Source: a bacterium (lineage in GTDB: Bacteria; Patescibacteriota; Minisyncoccia; UBA6257; JACOXY01). From it: a stretch of DNA of 41,035 nt. The stretch spans positions 1 to 41,035 of the forward strand of contig JAUXUB010000016.1 of NCBI GenBank assembly GCA_030680955.1, read 5' to 3'. The notes under the pieces were generated by a model. It was not told the DNA's origin. It searched no databases and saw only the letters and a list, made by a program, of their open reading frames with translations. Below are positions 1,765 to 40,300 of the stretch, piece after piece (position 1 is the first letter of the stretch; every line of letters begins with the position of its first letter). The position numbers were made by a program, and so were the translations under genes.

Positions 1765-1810
1765 GTTCTTCCCAGTTTATAACATATATTTTATCGTTTA
1801 GCAAATATAA

Positions 1811-1964
1811 TACCATCCCCAATTAACCACTACTCTTTTAACCTCGTCTTTGCGAGGAGGAACGACGAAGCAATCCAGATTTATCCCGTTAATTTCTGGA
1901 TTGCCGCGGGCTTCGCCCTCGCAATGACAGAAGTCTTATAGGAAGTGGTTAATTGAGGATGGTA
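1811..1964 (-). mobile_element. 154-bp multi-hairpin MITE, copy 2 (orientation B)
   Basis: Reverse complement of the copy 1/3 consensus: TACCATCCCCAATTAACC...GGTTAATTGAGGATGGTA. TA is present at both ends. Confidence 0.85.
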
Positions 1965-1968
1965 TAAT
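1960..1968 (+). promoter_or_regulatory. Extended -10 box TGGTATAAT formed at the MITE copy 2 right junction, upstream of valS
   Basis: GGATGG|TA|TAAT matches the TGnTATAAT consensus, 55 nt before the valS GTG start. The same 9-mer occurs at 4366, 5344 and 12023. Confidence 0.5.
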
Positions 1969-2023
1969 TTTAAATATAAATTAAATACTTGATAAAATGC
2001 TCGCGGAATGGAATGATTAGTAA

Positions 2024-4216
2024 GTGCTAAAGGAATTGCCATCGGAGTACAATCCAAAAGAATACGAAGAAAAGATGTACAAACTCTGGGAAGACAGTGG
2101 TTTTTTTAATCCAGACAATTTACCTAAAGTTTCAAAACAAAAAAACTTTAGTATCATAATGCCGCCACCTAATGCAAATGGAGCGCTCCATATGGGGCAT
2201 GCGCTTTTTGTAACTTTACAAGACATAATGATTCGATATAAAAGAATGCAGGGATATAAAACACTATGGCTTCCAGGGGCAGATCATGCCGGTTTTGAAA
2301 CTCAAGTTGTTTACCAAAAGAAACTAGAAAAAGAAGGACGGTCTTTTTGGGAAGTGCCAAAAGATAAACTTTACGAGGAAATTTTAGCTTTTACACTAGA
2401 GAATAAAAAACATATGGAAAGCCAGCTTAGGCAACTTGGTGCTTCCTGTGATTGGGGAAGAGAGAAATTCACGCTAGACGATGATATTAAAAAAATAGTT
2501 TATGAAACATTTAAAAAACTTTATGATGACAATTTAGTATATAAAGCGGAGCGCCCTGTAAATTGGTGTACCAGACACCAAACAACCTTATCTGATTTAG
2601 AAATAAAGCACGAGGAGCGAAAAGATAAATTATTTTATGTTCGTTACAAATTTGAAAATTCTGAAGATTATATAGTTGTTGCTACAACAAGACCAGAAAC
2701 AATTCCGGCAGATATTGCGATCGCTGTAAACCCAAAATCAAAATGGAATAAATATGTTGGTAAGAAAGTTTTAAATCCACTTACTCAAGAGGCAATCTTG
2801 ATTATTAGCGATAAGCGCGTAGAAATTTCATTCGGAACTGGTGCGCTTAAAATAACGCCATATCACGACGCGTTAGACTTTGAAATATATAAGGATCATC
2901 CCGAACTACCAGCTTCAAAAAGTGTTATTAATAAATTTGGAGCAATAGAAAATTCTGGGACTAAACTTGATGGATTAAAAATATTGCCAGCAAGAGAAAA
3001 GTCTATAGAAATTTTAAAATTTTCACTAGACAAAGAACCAGAAGATTATGTTCACCAAGTTAGTATTTGCTACAAGTGCAATACTTTAATTGAACCAAGA
3101 ATAATGAATCAGTGGTTTATTAAGACCACCGAAAAATCAAAAACTGGTAGTAAATCTCTAAGAGACCTCGCGATAGATGCAGTAAAGACAAAAAAAGTAA
3201 AATTTGTAACAAAGAAGTTTGAAAAGATTTTCATGCATTGGATGAAGAATCTACGAGATTGGAATATATCTAGGCAAATTGTATGGGGTATTAAAATTCC
3301 AGCTTGGTATCATGAACCAATATGCATACCAAAAAAAGGCCACGAAGGTGATGTGGTGAAATGTAATGAAATTATAATTTCGATGGATGAACCAATATGC
3401 GAGTTTTGCGATGCAAAATTTATACAAGAGTCTGATGTTTTTGATACTTGGTTTTCTTCAGGTCAATGGCCATTCGCATCACTAATGTCCACTCATAATA
3501 AAAATGATTTTAAAGATTTTTATCCAACTGATGTGATGGAAACTGGATGGGATATTTTATTCTTTTGGATAGCAAGAATGATAATGTTGGGAACATACAA
3601 AACAGGTAAAGTGCCTTTCAAAACTGTTTACCTTCATGGGTTGGTTCGCGACAAAGACCGACAAAAAATGTCTAAATCTAAGGGCAATGTTATTGACCCT
3701 CTTGGTGTAGCAGATATTTATGGTGCAGATGCCATAAGAATGTCGCTTGTTGTTGGAACTGCTCCAGGAAATGACCCCGTTATTTCTGAAGATAAAATAC
3801 GCGGTTATAGGAATTTTGCAACAAAAATTTGGAATGCTACAAGACTAATAACAATGCGTGGGTCAAGCACGATTCCAGAAAAACCTAATTATACGAACGA
3901 AGATAAAAAAACACTAAAAGAATTTGAAAAATTCAAAAAAACAGTTATTAAAGATATGGATGCCTATCGCTTTCACGAAGCTTCAAATAAAATTTATCAT
4001 TATTTCTGGCATACTTTTGCCGACAAAATTCTTGAATCATCAAAAGCGCGCTTGCAAGATGAAAATAAAAAAGTTAAAGAAACCGCAACGGCATTTCTCA
4101 TTAAACTCTTAACAGAGCAATTAAAGCTTCTACATCCATTTATGCCTTTTGTAACAGAAGCTATTTGGCAAGAATTATATGGTGGAAAGAAAATATTAAT
4201 GGTGGAAAAATTGTGA
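2024..4216 (+). CDS. valS: Valine--tRNA ligase
   Basis: Class I motifs are present: PPPNANGALHMGH (HIGH) and KMSKSKGN (KMSKS). A CP1 editing region and an anticodon-binding domain are also present. GTG start, TGA stop. At 730 aa there is no C-terminal coiled-coil extension. Confidence 0.95.
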   Translation: MLKELPSEYNPKEYEEKMYKLWEDSGFFNPDNLPKVSKQKNFSIIMPPPNANGALHMGHALFVTLQDIMIRYKRMQGYKTLWLPGADHAGFETQVVYQKKLEKEGRSFWEVPKDKLYEEILAFTLENKKHMESQLRQLGASCDWGREKFTLDDDIKKIVYETFKKLYDDNLVYKAERPVNWCTRHQTTLSDLEIKHEERKDKLFYVRYKFENSEDYIVVATTRPETIPADIAIAVNPKSKWNKYVGKKVLNPLTQEAILIISDKRVEISFGTGALKITPYHDALDFEIYKDHPELPASKSVINKFGAIENSGTKLDGLKILPAREKSIEILKFSLDKEPEDYVHQVSICYKCNTLIEPRIMNQWFIKTTEKSKTGSKSLRDLAIDAVKTKKVKFVTKKFEKIFMHWMKNLRDWNISRQIVWGIKIPAWYHEPICIPKKGHEGDVVKCNEIIISMDEPICEFCDAKFIQESDVFDTWFSSGQWPFASLMSTHNKNDFKDFYPTDVMETGWDILFFWIARMIMLGTYKTGKVPFKTVYLHGLVRDKDRQKMSKSKGNVIDPLGVADIYGADAIRMSLVVGTAPGNDPVISEDKIRGYRNFATKIWNATRLITMRGSSTIPEKPNYTNEDKKTLKEFEKFKKTVIKDMDAYRFHEASNKIYHYFWHTFADKILESSKARLQDENKKVKETATAFLIKLLTEQLKLLHPFMPFVTEAIWQELYGGKKILMVEKL

Positions 4217-4370
4217 TACCATCCTCAATTAACCACTTCCTATAAGATTTTTGTCATTGCGAGGGCGAAGCCCGCGGCAATCTAGAAAAAAACGGGATAA
4301 ATCTGGATTGCTTCGTCGTTCCTCCTCGCAAAGACGAAGTTAAAAGAATAGTGGTTAATTGGGGATGGTA
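4217..4370 (+). mobile_element. 154-bp multi-hairpin MITE, copy 3 (orientation A)
   Basis: It begins immediately after the valS TGA and has TA at both ends. Confidence 0.85.
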
Positions 4371-11873: not shown

Positions 11874-12027
11874 TACCATCCCCAATTAACCACTACTCTT
11901 TTAATCTCGTCTTTGCGAGGAGGAACGACGAAGCAATCCAGATTTATCCCATTATTTCCTGGATTGCCGCGGGCTTCGCCCTCGCAATGACAAAAGTCTT
12001 ATAGGAAGTGGTTAATTGAGGATGGTA
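11874..12027 (-). mobile_element. 154-bp multi-hairpin MITE, copy 4 (orientation B)
   Basis: Near-identical to copy 2, with TA at both ends. It lies between rpmB and tRNA-Pro. Confidence 0.85.
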
Positions 12028-21336: not shown

Positions 21337-22896
21337 TCACTTCACGTAATGCTTTTGTTTCATTTTTTGTTCTTCCCCTGCTTCAAATTCATCTTTAGTG
21401 CTTTTTGCTTTTTTAGCAAGCTGATGCAATTCTTTATCAGATAATTTATTTAATATTTTAATTCTTAATTCTAGATTCTCTATCGTGTTTCTTAAAGGAT
21501 CTTCTATTACTTCTTCTAATAATATAGAAAGTATCGCCCCAATTTTTGGACCTGGTGGAATATCTAGCAATCGCATCAAATCATCTCCTTTAACTAAAAG
21601 CATTTTGGGGCTTATTGGATCTCGCTTTACCTTCTCTATCATAAAAAGAAGATGGCGAAGTTTATATGGTACAGCCTTAGGAACTCCAGAACCAATTCTA
21701 TCCGCTTCACGAACTTTTATCAAATCGTCAATATTTTCTGGTCCAACTCTTGCTATAAAACGGCGTACACCAGATGGTGTTACTTCGCCAACGTTATAAT
21801 AAAATAAATGATACCTTACTAGATGAGCCACCTGCTCGATTAGGTCTTTGTTAAAATGAAGTCGATCCATTATTTTTACAGCCATTTTCCCTCCGATTAT
21901 ATCGTGTCCATAAAATGTAGAATCTGGACCATTGCCACGCTTACTCTTTGGTTTTCCAACATCATGCAAAAGTGATGCTAGACGAATGTGAAGAGGATAA
22001 TTTTTAGAAACTGCGTAATCAAGAGCTCTTAAATTATGTTCCCAAACAGAATATATATGATGTTTATTTTGTCCCACGTCTATACCTTCTCTAAGTTCTG
22101 GCATAATGTGTCGAAGTAATCCATAATCTTCCAGTATTTGAACTCCATCTTTAGCGCGACTAGACAATATTATTTTTTGAAATTCATCTCTAATTCGTTC
22201 TTTAGCAATAGCCTCAAGCAACCCACTGTGATGTAAAATAGCAGCTCCAGTTTCGCCGTCAATTTTAAAGCCGAGTTCGGATGCAAAACGTATCGCACGC
22301 ATCATTCGAAGCGCATCTTCGGTAAATCGTTCCTCGGGCTTACCCACTGTTTTAATGAGTTTAGCTTTTAAATCGCCCTGACCTCCATATGGATCCACCA
22401 ATTGCAGATTTTTTAAATCAATCTTTGTTTCGTTTTCAGTACTTAAGCCATCAACAATAAAATCTTTAGTATCAGATGACCAGCCAAGAGCTAGTGAATT
22501 AATCGTGAAATCGCGACGCGACAAATCTTCTTCAACTGTCTTTGCAAAAGAAATTGAATCTGGATGTCGCTTATCGGTATATTTGCCCTCTTTTCTAAAA
22601 GTAGTAATCTCTACTATTTTAGCTTTCAACTCCGACGCTGCGGTCGGAGTCCGGACCTCTTCGAGCGTCGGGATTTTCACCCCAACAGTTCCAAATTGAT
22701 TCTCATAAACACTATCAGGAAATAATTTTTGAACTTCATCTGGCTTAGCATTTGTCGTTATATCCCAGTCTTTTGGTTCGCGACCAAGTAAAATATCTCG
22801 TACGCAACCACCTACAAGATACGCCTCAAAATTAGCTTTTCTCAAAACCCTTAAAATTTTATTAACTTCAATTGGTATATGAATTTCTTTAGACAT
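21337..22896 (-). CDS. cca: CCA-adding tRNA nucleotidyltransferase with HD domain
   Basis: LVGGCVRDILLGREPKDWDITT, RRDFTINSLA, an HD motif (LLHDVGKP) and a C-terminal extension. Confidence 0.85.
   Translation of the reverse strand: MSKEIHIPIEVNKILRVLRKANFEAYLVGGCVRDILLGREPKDWDITTNAKPDEVQKLFPDSVYENQFGTVGVKIPTLEEVRTPTAASELKAKIVEITTFRKEGKYTDKRHPDSISFAKTVEEDLSRRDFTINSLALGWSSDTKDFIVDGLSTENETKIDLKNLQLVDPYGGQGDLKAKLIKTVGKPEERFTEDALRMMRAIRFASELGFKIDGETGAAILHHSGLLEAIAKERIRDEFQKIILSSRAKDGVQILEDYGLLRHIMPELREGIDVGQNKHHIYSVWEHNLRALDYAVSKNYPLHIRLASLLHDVGKPKSKRGNGPDSTFYGHDIIGGKMAVKIMDRLHFNKDLIEQVAHLVRYHLFYYNVGEVTPSGVRRFIARVGPENIDDLIKVREADRIGSGVPKAVPYKLRHLLFMIEKVKRDPISPKMLLVKGDDLMRLLDIPPGPKIGAILSILLEEVIEDPLRNTIENLELRIKILNKLSDKELHQLAKKAKSTKDEFEAGEEQKMKQKHYVK
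22630..22672 (-). repeat. G+C-rich palindromic module inserted in frame in cca
   Basis: The coding strand reads CCCGACGCTCGAAGAGGTCCGGACTCCGACCGCAGCGTCGGAG, encoding PTLEEVRTPTAASE. The 7-bp-stem hairpin CTCCGAC-CGCAGC-GTCGGAG is the same module as in uvrB. Confidence 0.6.
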
Positions 22897-26267: not shown

Positions 26268-27017
26268 TATTTACGTCATCGCAAGACGTAAATATTATTC
26301 CAACACTAACTTTTTAATACTATCCAAATCTAAATTTTGAAGCCAAGATTTTATACTTTTTTTATATCCATCCGGTCCATCAAAAAATTCAGATAATAAC
26401 TCTCTTTGGGTAACTGAGGGGAAATTTTTCTCCCCAGAGTAATCACGATGACTCGACCAGCGATAGCTATCTAAAAATTCAATTGCTTTCCTATAATTCG
26501 TCAATTTGCGATCTCGCCATTCCTTAAATTTAAAATCTAATGGATTGAAATGAATATAGTATGGAAGGTGAATAAAATGTGCGTCGTTCTTAACCGGAAC
26601 AGATTTAAATCTCCCCTCAAACAAAGTTCCGACTCTTTCGTATTTATTGTTAAAATACTTGGCATATCCCATATTAACTTTTTTCATAAACAATGAGATA
26701 CTACCCTCGTGACGAGGAGAAATAAGAAGGTGATAGTGATTATCCATCAAACAAAAAACGTGTAGATCAACCAATAACTTTCTTGGCTTCTTTTCATTGG
26801 GTTCAAATTTACGTCTTGCGATGACGTTAAATTGATAATAAGTGCTATTCGCTGGTTCTTGATTATTAAATTCAAATAAGTCGTGAATGAAGCGGTAGCG
26901 ATCCTCATCATCCATAAATATTTTTCTTTTATCTACTCCTCTACTTAAAACGTGATATATTTCACTCATAATGTAATATATAATATCCCAATATTTACGT
27001 CATCGCAAGACGTTAAT
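26268..27017 (-). mobile_element. IS200/RAYT-like unit: Y1 (HUH) transposase gene bracketed by two copies of one hairpin
   Basis: The hairpin TATTTACGTC-ATCGCAA-GACGTAAATA at 26268-26294 is repeated in the same orientation at 26993-27017 with one stem mismatch. The surrounding roughly 35 bp are also repeated. Confidence 0.65.
26295..26969 (-). CDS. REP-associated tyrosine transposase (RAYT) / IS200-like Y1 HUH transposase
   Basis: HUH motif MDNHYHLL, then YIHFNP and RWSSH, as in COG1943/RAYT proteins. 224 aa. Confidence 0.75.
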   Translation of the reverse strand: MSEIYHVLSRGVDKRKIFMDDEDRYRFIHDLFEFNNQEPANSTYYQFNVIARRKFEPNEKKPRKLLVDLHVFCLMDNHYHLLISPRHEGSISLFMKKVNMGYAKYFNNKYERVGTLFEGRFKSVPVKNDAHFIHLPYYIHFNPLDFKFKEWRDRKLTNYRKAIEFLDSYRWSSHRDYSGEKNFPSVTQRELLSEFFDGPDGYKKSIKSWLQNLDLDSIKKLVLE

Positions 27018-31272: not shown

Positions 31273-33387
31273 TCATCTGGTAATACGCGCAGTAAAATTA
31301 GAGCTGGGTTTAGATTTTGTTCCTATAGATTTTCGCTCTTTGTTCAAATCTTTAGACAAAATCTTAATTTCATCTCGCAGAATCGCTGCGAGTTCGAAGT
31401 CTAACTCGCCAGAGGCCTCCTTCATAGATTTTTCTTTCTCTTTAATAATATCTTCAATTTTTTTGCCCTTAATCGCACTTAAATCTAACTTCAAAACTGC
31501 TGCAATATCTTTACGTTTGGACATCAATTCTTCGGTAATATCATGAATGGCACGTTCAATCGTTTTAGGAGTAATTCCATGTTTTTTATTGTAGGCAAGC
31601 TGAATTGTGCGACGTCTTTCGGTTTCTCCGATTGCACGGGTAAGTGATCCAGTCATATGATCCGCATATAATAGCACCAGACCATTCACATTTCTGGCAG
31701 CGCGACCAATAGTCTGGATTAGAGCTGTATCAGAACGCAAAAATCCTTCTTTATCAGCGTCCATAATAGCAACGAGTGATACTTCTGGCAAGTCTAATCC
31801 TTCTCGCAATAAGTTAACACCAACCAATACGTCAAATTTACCACGCCTTAAATTAGAAAGTATTTGAATTCTATCCATTGTCTTTACATCACTATGAAGA
31901 TATTCGGATTTGATTTTCTCTTGCTGTAAGTATGCGCTTAAATCTTCTGCCATTTTCTTAGTAAGAGTTGTTACTAATACTCTCTCTTTTTTTTCTACAC
32001 GTTCTGCAATCCATTTCATTAAATCTTTTACTTGATTCTTGGCAGGCAATATTTTTATTTGAGGATCAACAAGCCCAGTCGGCCTAATGATTTGCTCAAC
32101 TATCCCCGACGCTTCGGTCGGGGCTCCGACCCCACTATTTTTAAAATCAGATTTGGGGCGTCGGAGCTGATTAGCTGCTTCACGACTTATTTGTTTTTCA
32201 TATTCAGCCGGTGTTGCTGAAGTATATATAATTTGATGAACGCGCTCATTAAATTCATTAAATTTTAGAGGACGATTATCTGCCGCGCTTGGCAGTCTAA
32301 ATCCATACTCTATAAGAGTTTTCTTGCGAGATGCATCTCCCGCATACATTCCTGTTATTTGTGGAACGGTAACATGAGATTCGTCTATGATAGTAAGGAA
32401 ATCTCCTCGAAAATAATCTAATAGTGTTTCTGGTGGCTCTCCTGCGGCACGCCCAGATAGTTGCCTTGAGTAATTTTCAATCCCATGACAATAACCAACT
32501 TCTTGAATCATCGCTAAATCAAATTTTGTTCTTTGATCTAGACGCTCGGCTTCTAGAAATTTTTTGTCATTTTCAAAAACTTTTAATTGCTCTTCGAGTT
32601 CCTTCCTGATTGCTTTTACAGCGCGCTGCTTTTGCGGACCTAATGTAATGAAGTGTCTAGCTGGAGAAATAATAATATCAGGAATAATTTTTGACTCACG
32701 TGACACTGGATCTACTAAATATATTTCTTTTATTAAATCGCCTTCTGTTACAAAGTTATAAATGATTTCCTTGTCTGGTGGCATTACCTCCCAGTTATCC
32801 CCCCTCAACCTAAATGACCCCCTGGTTAAATCTGCATTAGTTCTTTTAAACTGCAGCTGAACTAATTTTCTTGCAAATTCTTTTCGAGTTACTCTGTCTA
32901 ACGGTTTTAGTCTTATAATATTTTCTGCGTATGCTTCTGGTGCTCCCAAGCCGTAGATACAAGAAACGGAGGCAACAACAATTACGTCTTTCCTTGTTAG
33001 CAGGTCAGTAGTTGCCGCATGACGTAATTTATCTATCTCGTCATTTATCATTGCTTCTTTTTCGATATAGGTATCAGAACTTGGCATATAAGCTTCCGGC
33101 TGATAATAATCATAATAAGAAACAAAATAATTTACAGAATTATTTGGAAATATTTCTCTAAATTCATTGCAAAGTTGAGCAGCTAAAGTTTTGTTATGAG
33201 CTATTACAAGAGTTGGCTTTTGAATTTTTTCTATGACGTTTGCAACTGTGAATGTTTTACCAGAACCTGTAACACCCAAGAGTGTTTGGTGTTTCATGCC
33301 CGCTTCTAATCCAGCGACTAGTTGTTTAATCGCCTTTGGTTGATCTCCCGCTGGACGATGTTTAGATACAATTTTAAAATTATTCAT
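31273..33387 (-). CDS. uvrB: Excinuclease ABC subunit B
   Basis: GVTGSGKT, DESH, helicase motifs and a C-terminal UVR motif (FELAAILRDEI). The start is moved to ATG 33387 (MNNFKIVSKHRPAGDQPKAI). Confidence 0.95.
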   Translation of the reverse strand: MNNFKIVSKHRPAGDQPKAIKQLVAGLEAGMKHQTLLGVTGSGKTFTVANVIEKIQKPTLVIAHNKTLAAQLCNEFREIFPNNSVNYFVSYYDYYQPEAYMPSSDTYIEKEAMINDEIDKLRHAATTDLLTRKDVIVVASVSCIYGLGAPEAYAENIIRLKPLDRVTRKEFARKLVQLQFKRTNADLTRGSFRLRGDNWEVMPPDKEIIYNFVTEGDLIKEIYLVDPVSRESKIIPDIIISPARHFITLGPQKQRAVKAIRKELEEQLKVFENDKKFLEAERLDQRTKFDLAMIQEVGYCHGIENYSRQLSGRAAGEPPETLLDYFRGDFLTIIDESHVTVPQITGMYAGDASRKKTLIEYGFRLPSAADNRPLKFNEFNERVHQIIYTSATPAEYEKQISREAANQLRRPKSDFKNSGVGAPTEASGIVEQIIRPTGLVDPQIKILPAKNQVKDLMKWIAERVEKKERVLVTTLTKKMAEDLSAYLQQEKIKSEYLHSDVKTMDRIQILSNLRRGKFDVLVGVNLLREGLDLPEVSLVAIMDADKEGFLRSDTALIQTIGRAARNVNGLVLLYADHMTGSLTRAIGETERRRTIQLAYNKKHGITPKTIERAIHDITEELMSKRKDIAAVLKLDLSAIKGKKIEDIIKEKEKSMKEASGELDFELAAILRDEIKILSKDLNKERKSIGTKSKPSSNFTARITR
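32104..32167 (-). repeat. G+C-rich double-hairpin module inserted in frame in uvrB
   Basis: Plus strand: CCCCGAC-GCTTCG-GTCGGGG, then GCTCCGACCCC...GGGGCGTCGGAGC. It encodes ...NQLRRPKSDFKNSGVGAPTEASG..., an extra segment of about 22 aa relative to E. coli UvrB just before RPTGL. Confidence 0.65.
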
Positions 33388-35274: not shown

Positions 35275-35340
35275 GAATAAATCGGAAACAATATTTTCTA
35301 GGCCTTTTGCAAAATTAGGATTTAGTCAAAGTTTTATTCC

Positions 35341-35401
35341 CTGAGCTTGTCGAAGGGTAAAATTTTGGCTTAAAATCAAGGTATGCCTTCGACAAGCTCA
35401 G
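35341..35401. repeat. 16-bp-stem hairpin downstream of pdaD
   Basis: CTGAGCTTGTCGAAGG, a 29-nt loop, then CCTTCGACAAGCTCAG. The right arm CTTCGACAAGCTCAG recurs alone at 11817-11831. Confidence 0.7.
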
Positions 35402-35439
35402 ACAATAATCAGTTTCTATTTTATTTTGCGAAGGATCTT

Positions 35440-40129: not shown

Positions 40130-40211
40130 AATACCAGTATATAAGATTTAACAAATTTGGTCTAGCAATAGTAATACTATCCACTTATACGGTTTATGTA
40201 GTTATTTCTCT

Positions 40212-40282
40212 GTCTTTGCGAGGGTTATCCCGAAGCAATCTATTTTGATTAGACTAGTTTGCTTCGCTCTGCTCGCAAAGAC
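40212..40282. repeat. Hairpin related to the internal motif of the 154-bp MITE
   Basis: GTCTTTGCGAG ... GAAGCAA ... TTGCTTC ... CTCGCAAAGAC. Confidence 0.55.
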
Positions 40283-40300
40283 GGAAAATACAAATATGAA

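Follow-up and report, generated by a model that had tools for sequence, protein, structure and literature searches.

The 41,035-nt stretch analyzed here (GenBank assembly GCA_030680955.1, contig JAUXUB010000016.1; hereafter the window, and the only part of its source genome that was available) comes from a member of the Patescibacteria. On its minus strand it carries a uvrB gene (31273..33387) that holds a short G+C-rich palindromic element in frame. The gene, taken from the list of open reading frames (ORFs), matches UvrB structures in the PDB with E values down to 1.7e-241. Its product is 704 aa long as annotated, with an ORF that can be extended to 33474, and is identical to protein P0001 of a metagenome-assembled genome (MAG) at NCBI. 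The nearest named relatives of this UvrB, and of the CCA-adding enzyme encoded in the same window, belong to Liptonbacteria, Jorgensenbacteria, and Wolfebacteria, which places the organism among the Patescibacteria of Parcubacteria type. A preliminary description of this DNA had reported the palindromic module in uvrB and a twin in cca, and had likened both to the Rickettsia palindromic elements (RPEs).

The complete element, counted with its flanking trinucleotides (CAG...ATA), lies at 32101..32169 on the minus strand and is the window's best match to a covariance model built from 42 copies (63.2 bits, E 7e-14). In coding sense it consists of YAR, CTCCGACG, a variable distal stem-loop, GTCGGAG, YCCCGACCGAAGCGTCGGGR, and YTR, and it forms two hairpins. 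Hairpin 2 (32104..32123, minus strand) is the conserved core, CCCCGAC-CGAAGC-GTCGGGG in sense and read P-T-E-A-S-G, with a stem that is invariant in 42 aligned copies. Hairpin 1 (32124..32166, minus strand) has the arms CTCCGACGCCCC / GGGGTCGGAG and is read L-R-R-P-K-S-D-F-K-N-S-G-V-G; its distal part, 32134-32154, is 21 nt long and A+T-rich. The 18 nt upstream (32167..32184, minus strand; sense CGTGAAGCAGCTAATCAG, R-E-A-A-N-Q) belong to the uvrB-specific insertion, as judged from filled versus empty alleles. On the plus strand the order is CCCCGACGCTTCGGTCGGGG (32104-32123, CCCCGAC-GCTTCG-GTCGGGG), CTCCGACCCC (32124-33), 21 A+T-rich bases, and GGGGCGTCGGAG (32155-66). The uvrB coding strand across the element reads ...SREAANQLRRPKSDFKNSGVGAPTEASGIVEQIIRPTGL, and this segment of the minus-strand ORF is translated ...NQLRRPKSDFKNSGVGAPTEASGIVEQ. 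The palindromes and their translation are thus as first described.

The contrast in base composition that drew attention to the segment holds as well, with a G+C content of 0.57 in the uvrB copy and 0.64 in the cca copy against 0.357 (35.7%) for the window. The pattern CCGACN{3,12}GTCGG has 2 matches in the 41 kb, those in uvrB and cca, where 0.02 would be expected, and none of 100 shuffled windows had two. The 69-nt uvrB module folds as DNA with z = -3.86 (z = -3.9, with 0 of 200 shuffles folding equally well).

Alignment by HMMER to solved UvrB proteins places a 25-residue gap at the element, between SATPxxYE and IVEQIIRPTGL. In the syntenic relative L002, whose UvrB is 86% identical, the same place reads ...ISDK-IVEQ... 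and is an empty site. Compared with it, the window has 27 extra codons, an 81-nt insertion at 32104-32184. The segment is therefore extra and in frame, and it begins where the preliminary description had put it; the insertion ends at 32184 rather than 32167 and is larger than the approximately 22 codons (66 nt) first estimated. In the closer relative L001 (95% UvrB identity), the uvrB copy is restructured. The sister alleles P0018 (filled) and P0073 (empty) differ by 54 nt at 86% nucleotide identity, and UvrB length among close homologs ranges from 653 to 768 aa. An AlphaFold (AF2) model of the window UvrB has a mean predicted local distance difference test (pLDDT) score of 72.6. In it, a helix runs into REAANQL, pLDDT drops below 50 for residues 412-424 (PKSDFKNSGVGAP), and the conserved strand IVE resumes afterwards. 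The insertion site is in the linker before the second helicase domain, a region that the model predicts with low confidence. In agreement with the surface loop that had been foreseen, the element inside UvrB is most likely translated as a tolerated loop of this kind.

The second copy lies in cca (21337..22896, minus strand), a gene recognized by the Pfam families PolyA_pol, PolyA_pol_RNAbd, HD, and tRNA_NucTran2_2 and by CCA-adding enzymes in the PDB. It is degenerate: at 22627..22676 (minus strand) the sense sequence is TCCCGACGC-TCGAAGAG-GTCCGGAC-TCCGACCGCAGCGTCGGAG, read I-P-T-L-E-E-V-R-T-P-T-A-A-S-E, and it scores 43.4 bits (E 6e-9) against the 63.2 bits of the uvrB copy. The covariance model finds exactly these two matches in the window and none in L002. 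The second hairpin has the same strand and frame in both genes, giving P-T-A-A-S in cca and P-T-E-A-S in uvrB, so the twin relationship stands. At the element, the window CCA protein has 14 more residues than solved CCA enzymes, and the loop is short (T[DE]SxxPxLK) in most of 120 homologs. The cca gene of L002 has this plain loop, so that this relative lacks both copies. L001 has a different 24-nt repeat at the site, two direct copies of CAATTTACGGACATCCGATGTCGG (L001 12860-12980).

Anatomy and distribution of the repeat family

The uvrB DNA of five relatives gives the coding-strand consensus CTCCGACGY-(variable)-GTCGGAG-YCCCGACYGMAGCGTCGGGR. A search of 185,579 species genomes for the exact 26-nt core, GTCGGAGYCCCGACYGMAGCGTCGGG, gave 91 stretches; one genome was scanned per species, with a pattern that overlooks decayed copies such as the one in cca. 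By the taxonomy labels of the MAGs, taken as deposited, almost all of these stretches are from the ultra-small bacteria of the Candidate Phyla Radiation (CPR, the Patescibacteria): Saccharibacteria, Doudnabacteria, Kaiserbacteria, Taylorbacteria, Wolfebacteria, Liptonbacteria, Vogelbacteria, Giovannonibacteria, and Paceibacterota. Five core-carrying contigs have non-CPR labels. The copies form a dispersed family that underwent a recent burst in a single genome, Ca. Taylorbacteria RIFCSPLOWO2_12_FULL_43_20 (MHSK01), which contains about 44 almost identical copies in a 40-nt form, mostly intergenic and interleaved with other repeats. Besides these 44, we analyzed 61 distinct copies, orthologs included. 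The genome of L002, empty in uvrB, has a copy upstream of a tRNA-Lys gene (L024).

The unit is 39-69 nt long. In hairpin 1, the arms CTCCGACG / GTCGGAG enclose a variable but self-complementary region, with 3.39 contiguous outer pairs on average versus 0.59 in shuffles (maximum of 1000 shuffled means, 1.08). Its fillings are varied (CTCGTCTGACGAG, TTTGCTTTCTAGCAAA, and CCACG...CGTGG, for example), and the distal part is A+T-rich (21-28 nt), between intact arms, in L003 and in the uvrB copy of the window. RNAalifold recovered both hairpins from the 42 copies with compensatory pairs, the covarying pairs being 12-28, 13-27, and 36-55. The last of these is the outermost of hairpin 2 (C-G 22, T-A 18, T-G 2), and its 3' base lay outside the search pattern. 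The stems of the two hairpins are related (CYCCGAC / GTCGGRG); because hairpin 1 approximates the reverse complement of hairpin 2, the unit has 9-nt inverted repeats at its ends and alternative whole-unit folds. These terminal inverted repeats, 5' CYCCGACGC and 3' GCGTCGGRG, are extended by the flanking trinucleotides. On the 5' side the flank is YAR (Y at -3 in 53/61 copies, A at -2 in 42/61, R at -1 in 56/61), and on the 3' side its mirror image YTR (39/61, 35/61, and 45/61). Of 53 copies, 40 have their sense strand on the G-rich strand (40:13), as do 25 of 36 Taylorbacteria copies, a bias that is confounded with gene direction. The hairpin 1 loop of L013, L039, L052, and L079 holds another CCGAC...GTCGG hairpin, as in CTCCGACG-CCCCGACTTGCTGTCGGGG-GTCGGAG, which suggests nested self-insertion or templated stem extension.

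No Rfam family matches the element, either in a permissive scan of five loci or at the gathering threshold on 36 loci, and in the Rfam scans its copies lie outside rRNA, RNase P RNA, and intact tRNA genes; RPEs have no family in Rfam either. Phages as vectors were set aside, since the viral contigs of IMG/VR and the phages of INPHARED yielded zero copies. Full-text literature searches, incomplete in coverage, returned no description of such elements in Patescibacteria.

A recurrent setting is the neighborhood of tRNA genes. Twelve of the approximately 61 copies outside the Taylorbacteria genome are followed on the same strand, at a distance of 10-320 nt, by a tRNA gene; 11 of these 12 are embedded in a partial duplicate of the 5' end of that downstream tRNA. 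In L041, for example, GGACAATTAGCTCAG, the element, and TTGGTTAG are directly followed by an intact tRNA-Val gene, GGACAATTAGCTCAGTTGGTTAGAGCG.... The truncated duplicates comprise the acceptor and D-arm portions (L041 3340-3440, L073 5120-5300, L047 5430-5720, and L100 1960-2126; also L032, L042, L082, L094, L021, L024, L020, and L038), with the element junction after GTAG or after GCTCAR. L100, with the identical arrangement, was the one further example from a metagenome scan for a D-arm joined to the element. The arrangement at these loci, A-element-B together with an intact A-B, differs from a flanking duplication. They may have arisen by insertion into one of two tandem tRNA duplicates followed by decay, by integration of a small circle carrying flanks, or by homology-anchored uptake of foreign DNA. 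The uvrB target (...GAGCAR/ATNGTNGAGCA, the slash marking the junction) loosely resembles the tRNA D-arm site in sequence. L047 and L082 contain additional pseudo-tRNA copies, one with a different insert in its D-loop. One further element copy lies 115 nt upstream of a 16S rRNA gene (L023); that gene (1776-3964) is interrupted by a group I intron (2624-2824), and another group I intron is found in L020 (718-939).

Copies inside genes and the history of the uvrB allele

About 40% of the copies outside the Taylorbacteria genome are intragenic, and 23 lie at least 80 codons inside an ORF, in more than 10 protein families. Their hosts, assigned by Pfam or by eye, are UvrB, UvrA, CCA, DnaK, SecA, PNPase, a WecG/GT4 glycosyltransferase, a Mur ligase, RNase J, topoisomerase I (TopA), YchF, and a 2636-aa protein. 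In L004 the module occurs in uvrA as well as uvrB, as a clean 14-residue insertion (SDARRSGVGAPTAA) relative to three other UvrAs. The proposal of RPE-like, in-frame colonization is therefore supported well beyond the window, by a module whose sites in many Patescibacteria genomes include over 10 unrelated housekeeping genes, intergenic DNA, and the vicinity of tRNA genes.

The core is free of stop codons in all six frames, and the frames are used very unevenly. Among the 23 deep intragenic copies, 14 are in sense frame 0 (...VGAPTEASG...), 6 in antisense frame 0 (...PDASVGAPT...), and 3 in others, so that 20 of 23 are in two frames reading V-G-A-P-T. Both favored frames encode this peptide because the center of the element is palindromic; the remaining frames are arginine-rich. 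Counting the eight orthologous uvrB copies once leaves the bias at about 13/16. Element length is divisible by three in 35 of the 61 copies.

Constraint on the DNA itself was measured in five uvrB alleles (window, L003, L004, L005, and L097) that were picked by protein similarity and not by DNA pattern. At positions with the same residue, the codons are identical at 80 of 90 in the core (89%) versus 98 of 258 (38%) in the flanks, taken as the next 40 conserved codons, and the element retains G+C-rich codons despite a genome of 36% G+C. Judging from these alignments, the peptide alone cannot account for the codon-level constraint in the uvrB core. An ordinary lineage-specific loop of UvrB (and CCA), selected as protein with the palindromic DNA incidental, is on these grounds very improbable. 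Its recommendations are that the peptide REAVEQLRRRGVGVPTEASG is present in many Parcubacteria UvrBs at 65-80% identity and that part of it is modeled as a helix extension. Against it stand, besides the frozen synonymous positions, the presence of the same DNA in over 10 genes that are unrelated, between genes, and in antisense orientation, the low structural confidence of the region, and filled alleles that are sister to empty ones.

The last point comes from the distribution of the insert among the 120 closest UvrB proteins, of which about 16 have the module, 59 are empty, and the rest carry other short inserts at the same spot. In a neighbor-joining UvrB tree computed with the insert left out, filled alleles are dispersed, and their sisters are often empty. 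Nine of the nine filled alleles with DNA share the upstream sequence E[AS]x[EN/R]Q. The target ATAGTTGAGCAA (I-V-E-Q), 3' of the element, seems to have a diverged direct duplicate in the last 12 nt of the upstream 18 nt, so that a diverged 9-12-nt direct repeat (GTTGAGCAR) brackets the uvrB copy. In P0018, the filled member of the pair with 86% nucleotide identity, this upstream repeat matches its own target at only about 7 of 12 nt. A recent insertion in uvrB is rejected on this divergence and on the presence of the repeat in all filled alleles. We conclude from these comparisons that uvrB was probably hit once, long ago, and that the filled allele would since have been lost or exchanged by recombination many times; alleles reading SSEAG or SSESG may be deletion scars. 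The preliminary description had regarded the same peptide in distant orthologs as a sign of ancestry, and such orthologs do exist, at 65-70% identity. They dispose of a recent uvrB insertion. They do not refute the idea of colonization, because the peptide is scattered beside sister alleles that are empty, synonymous sites of the DNA are conserved, and other genes contain the module too.

Mobile repeat or conserved signal

Taken together, we think it probable that the segment in uvrB is a copy of a small (39-69 nt), G+C-rich, non-coding double-hairpin repeat of Patescibacteria. Most likely this is a selfish element resembling either the repetitive extragenic palindromic (REP) sequences and their paired form, the REPINs, or the transposable elements of the miniature inverted-repeat type (MITEs). 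Two end hairpins with a common stem, a flanking trinucleotide that is conserved, no obvious target duplication of fixed length, and an orientation bias make its architecture fit a non-autonomous element handled as single-stranded DNA (ssDNA), of the REP/REPIN or IS200/IS605-miniature type. Such an element would spread as DNA through a single-stranded hairpin intermediate on which a trans-acting enzyme operates, a Y1/HUH transposase being the obvious putative candidate, and would enter adjacent to a YAR trinucleotide. In essential genes, copies would survive only where their length preserves the frame and the peptide is a harmless flexible loop. The uvrB copy would be an old allele passed between lineages by recombination, and in its A+T-rich source genome the distal stem may have decayed or expanded while the recognized arms stayed intact.

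Known systems share parts of this picture. With REPs and REPINs the element has in common imperfect hairpins of about 20 nt, two inverted units side by side, an intergenic burst in one genome with mosaics of other repeats that resemble bacterial interspersed mosaic elements (BIMEs), and the presence in the same genomes, the window included, of Y1 genes like those of REP-associated tyrosine transposases (RAYTs). It differs in its 5' flank, which is YAR and not a conserved GTAG (GTAG being confined to the tRNA-like fragments), and in that many copies are intragenic, with a low copy number in most genomes and high intergenic abundance only in Taylorbacteria MHSK01. Miniatures of IS200/IS605 insertion sequences (ISs), the MITEs of palindrome-associated transposable element (PATE) type, likewise have similar hairpins at both ends, a short 5'-flank motif, no obvious fixed target duplication, and a strand bias. 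In the Patescibacteria element, however, the variable part lies in the loop of the first hairpin and not between the end hairpins, and the terminal inverted repeats (CYCCGACGC) are atypical for that group. Classical MITEs (Correia, ERIC, Nezha, and others) are comparable in being small, with terminal inverted repeats, occasional in-frame copies, and bursts, but they measure 100-400 bp and have defined target-site duplications and a matching IS, neither of which was clearly seen here.

The resemblance to RPEs appears to be one of behavior. RPEs are dispersed palindromic repeats of about 150 bp, in about ten families restricted to Rickettsia, with about half of the copies in frame in ORFs; they are translated in fold-compatible places and also occur in non-coding DNA (PMC10969869). 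The Patescibacteria element shares with them dispersed palindromic copies in a reduced genome, in frame in unrelated conserved ORFs and absent from orthologs, the uvrB, cca, and uvrA sites being empty there. At 39-69 nt, G+C-rich in A+T-rich genomes, and built of two short hairpins, it differs in form, and also in being phylum-wide and tied to partial duplicates of tRNA 5' ends. Since the element does not clearly show the full set of defining features of the RPE, REPIN, or MITE families, we set it beside these families and not within any of them.

In-frame colonization of essential genes by palindromes has largely been treated as a Rickettsia peculiarity, and a 2024 review merely speculates on its occurrence elsewhere (PMC10969869). 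Here it is seen across Patescibacteria with a much smaller element. This phylum reportedly accounts for between a quarter and a third of the diversity of bacteria. The inserts explain part of the puzzling length variation of conserved CPR proteins and can mislead alignments, phylogenies, and gene calls. The element is also a compact, searchable marker of recombination and mobile-DNA activity in organisms that are not culturable alone, and its tRNA-proximal copies with their partial tRNA duplicates are a concrete handle on the insertion mechanism.

Several observations weigh against reading the element as a selfish mobile repeat. By the exact-pattern scan, most genomes other than MHSK01 have 1-3 intact copies. 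The distribution in uvrB points to one old event followed by loss or recombination rather than to repeated transposition, since all filled alleles share the upstream sequence. No clear target-site duplication of fixed length is seen. No gene bracketed by the element was found, the ORFs between neighboring Taylorbacteria copies being ordinary genes, and no parent IS with the element's ends or cognate TnpA was seen in the loci examined (approximately 0.7 Mb). In these loci, the five Y1 genes (window, L001, L068, L086, and L095) are each flanked by different hairpins and not by the element, a further departure from REP/RAYT systems, and a link to the Y1 transposases examined is rejected on this basis. 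The translation of the segment is itself a prediction from the reading frame. Finally, a core that is nearly invariant across deep CPR lineages, together with covariation in the stems, could equally mean a selected cis-acting function.

An alternative that goes beyond one more MITE, and that we consider unlikely, is a phylum-wide hairpin module that either inserts by an undescribed, sequence-directed mechanism at DNA resembling the tRNA D-arm or acts in the leaders of tRNA and rRNA as a conserved signal on RNA or ssDNA. In the first case, insertion could occur after GTAG or GCTCAR and leave a partial tRNA 5' copy upstream of the intact tRNA gene, and the uvrB site (...GAGCAR/) could be of the same type. 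In the second, Patescibacteria could use the module at tRNA and rRNA leaders and tolerate it inside genes. If true, either would bring to light a new system, of mobile elements or of host factors, in a phylum where experimental genetics is almost absent.

Also unlikely is a cis-acting structure proper: a binding, processing, or recombination site, on RNA or ssDNA, for a conserved Patescibacteria factor, which perhaps spread as a mobile element and is now kept for a function such as tRNA/rRNA leader processing or genome maintenance. The near-invariant core across distant CPR classes, the compensatory changes in both hairpins, and codon conservation far above that of the flanks are what such a site would lead one to expect. 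So are the 12 of about 61 copies upstream of tRNA genes and the one upstream of 16S rRNA; each 20-mer, moreover, has as read from sequence a 7-6-7 arm-spacer-arm layout typical of recombinase core sites. Against this, copies are found in both orientations, between genes as well as at unrelated places inside ORFs, and bear no fixed relation to the ends of genes. Close relatives that lack the copies in uvrB and cca fare well, the burst in one genome, with about 44 copies, has the look of proliferation, and no Rfam family matches.

Group I introns in L020 and L023 and the occurrence of the element in tRNA-like D-loop contexts bring to mind a mini-intron-like sequence that is excised from mRNA and tRNA precursors and never translated; CPR genomes carry introns in rRNA and tRNA genes. 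We regard this as more improbable still than a selected protein loop. The intragenic copies are always in frame, with two frames strongly preferred, which would be pointless if they were excised; no ribozyme family matches; and the element is only 39-69 nt long. For the tRNA copies, the intron idea was rejected directly: ARAGORN and Rfam detect the intact downstream genes only, ARAGORN finds no element-containing tRNA, and the hosts are truncated fragments beside intact genes. Least probable of all is that the element serves naturally competent CPR bacteria as a signal for DNA uptake or is an artifact of assembly: several hosts are repair or replication genes, and the uptake sequences of Neisseria and Haemophilus also lie in genes, with preferred frames and enrichment in genome-maintenance genes, but 1-3 intact copies per genome are orders of magnitude too few, and an artifact is excluded by the recurrence of the element, with differing distal stems, in dozens of independent assemblies that different studies produced.

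The Y1 transposase gene and other repeats

The Y1 gene of the window (26295..26969, minus strand) lies between uvrA and uvrC and encodes an IS200-like or RAYT-like protein of 224 aa (Pfam Y1_Tnp, 4.6e-8; a weak match to NCBIfam REP_Tyr_transpos) with HYH as its HUH motif and a YIHFNP motif. L001 has this gene as well (94% identity), and L002 lacks it. The gene is bracketed by its own hairpins, TTTACGTCATCGCAAGACGTAAA, at 26273-26289 and 26997-27013; these are direct copies of TTTACGTCATCGCAAGACGT(A/T)AA, distinct from the element, and an inverted copy of the 17-nt core ACGTCATCGCAAGACGT lies within the gene at 26811-26827. In L068, the Y1 gene is flanked by ATGGATGTCGGACATCCAT (around 6900 and 7540), a motif similar to the repeat at the cca site of L001. 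In the Taylorbacteria genome, some element copies have a reverse-transcriptase-like ORF nearby (L078 5486-6532).

A second, unrelated family in the window consists of G+C-rich inverted repeats of about 85 nt (GTCTTTGCGAGGAGGAACGACGAAGCAATCCAGA ... TCTGGATTGCCGCGGGCTTCGCCCTCGCAATGAC), all intergenic, at 1846-1928, 4250-4338, and 11909-11991, with a weaker copy at 40206-40288. Its motif GTC(A/T)T(C/T)GC(A/G)AG resembles the hairpins beside the Y1 gene. A third palindromic family (CCTTCGACAAGCTCAG...) is represented at 35334-35408. Compared with its sister P0073, the UvrB of P0018 has an in-frame insertion of a 45-nt stretch related to this family (L097 uvrB nt 992-1037), so that, with the element also present in P0018, one uvrB gene can hold two different repeat insertions.

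The UvrB linker and the CCA loop are general insertion hotspots. Other recurrent short inserts at the UvrB linker, QACPEPSRG, DPxxGxGQ, and CGIPKHGVRVSPR, occur in scattered lineages (P0025, P0030, P0036, P0037, P0042, P0043, P0060, and others), and the DNA of the QACPEPSRG insert at this site has no obvious palindrome. The CCA loop receives inserts of the RINADQ...PRESA type, again in scattered lineages (P0139, P0142, P0173, P0184, P0193, and P0231).

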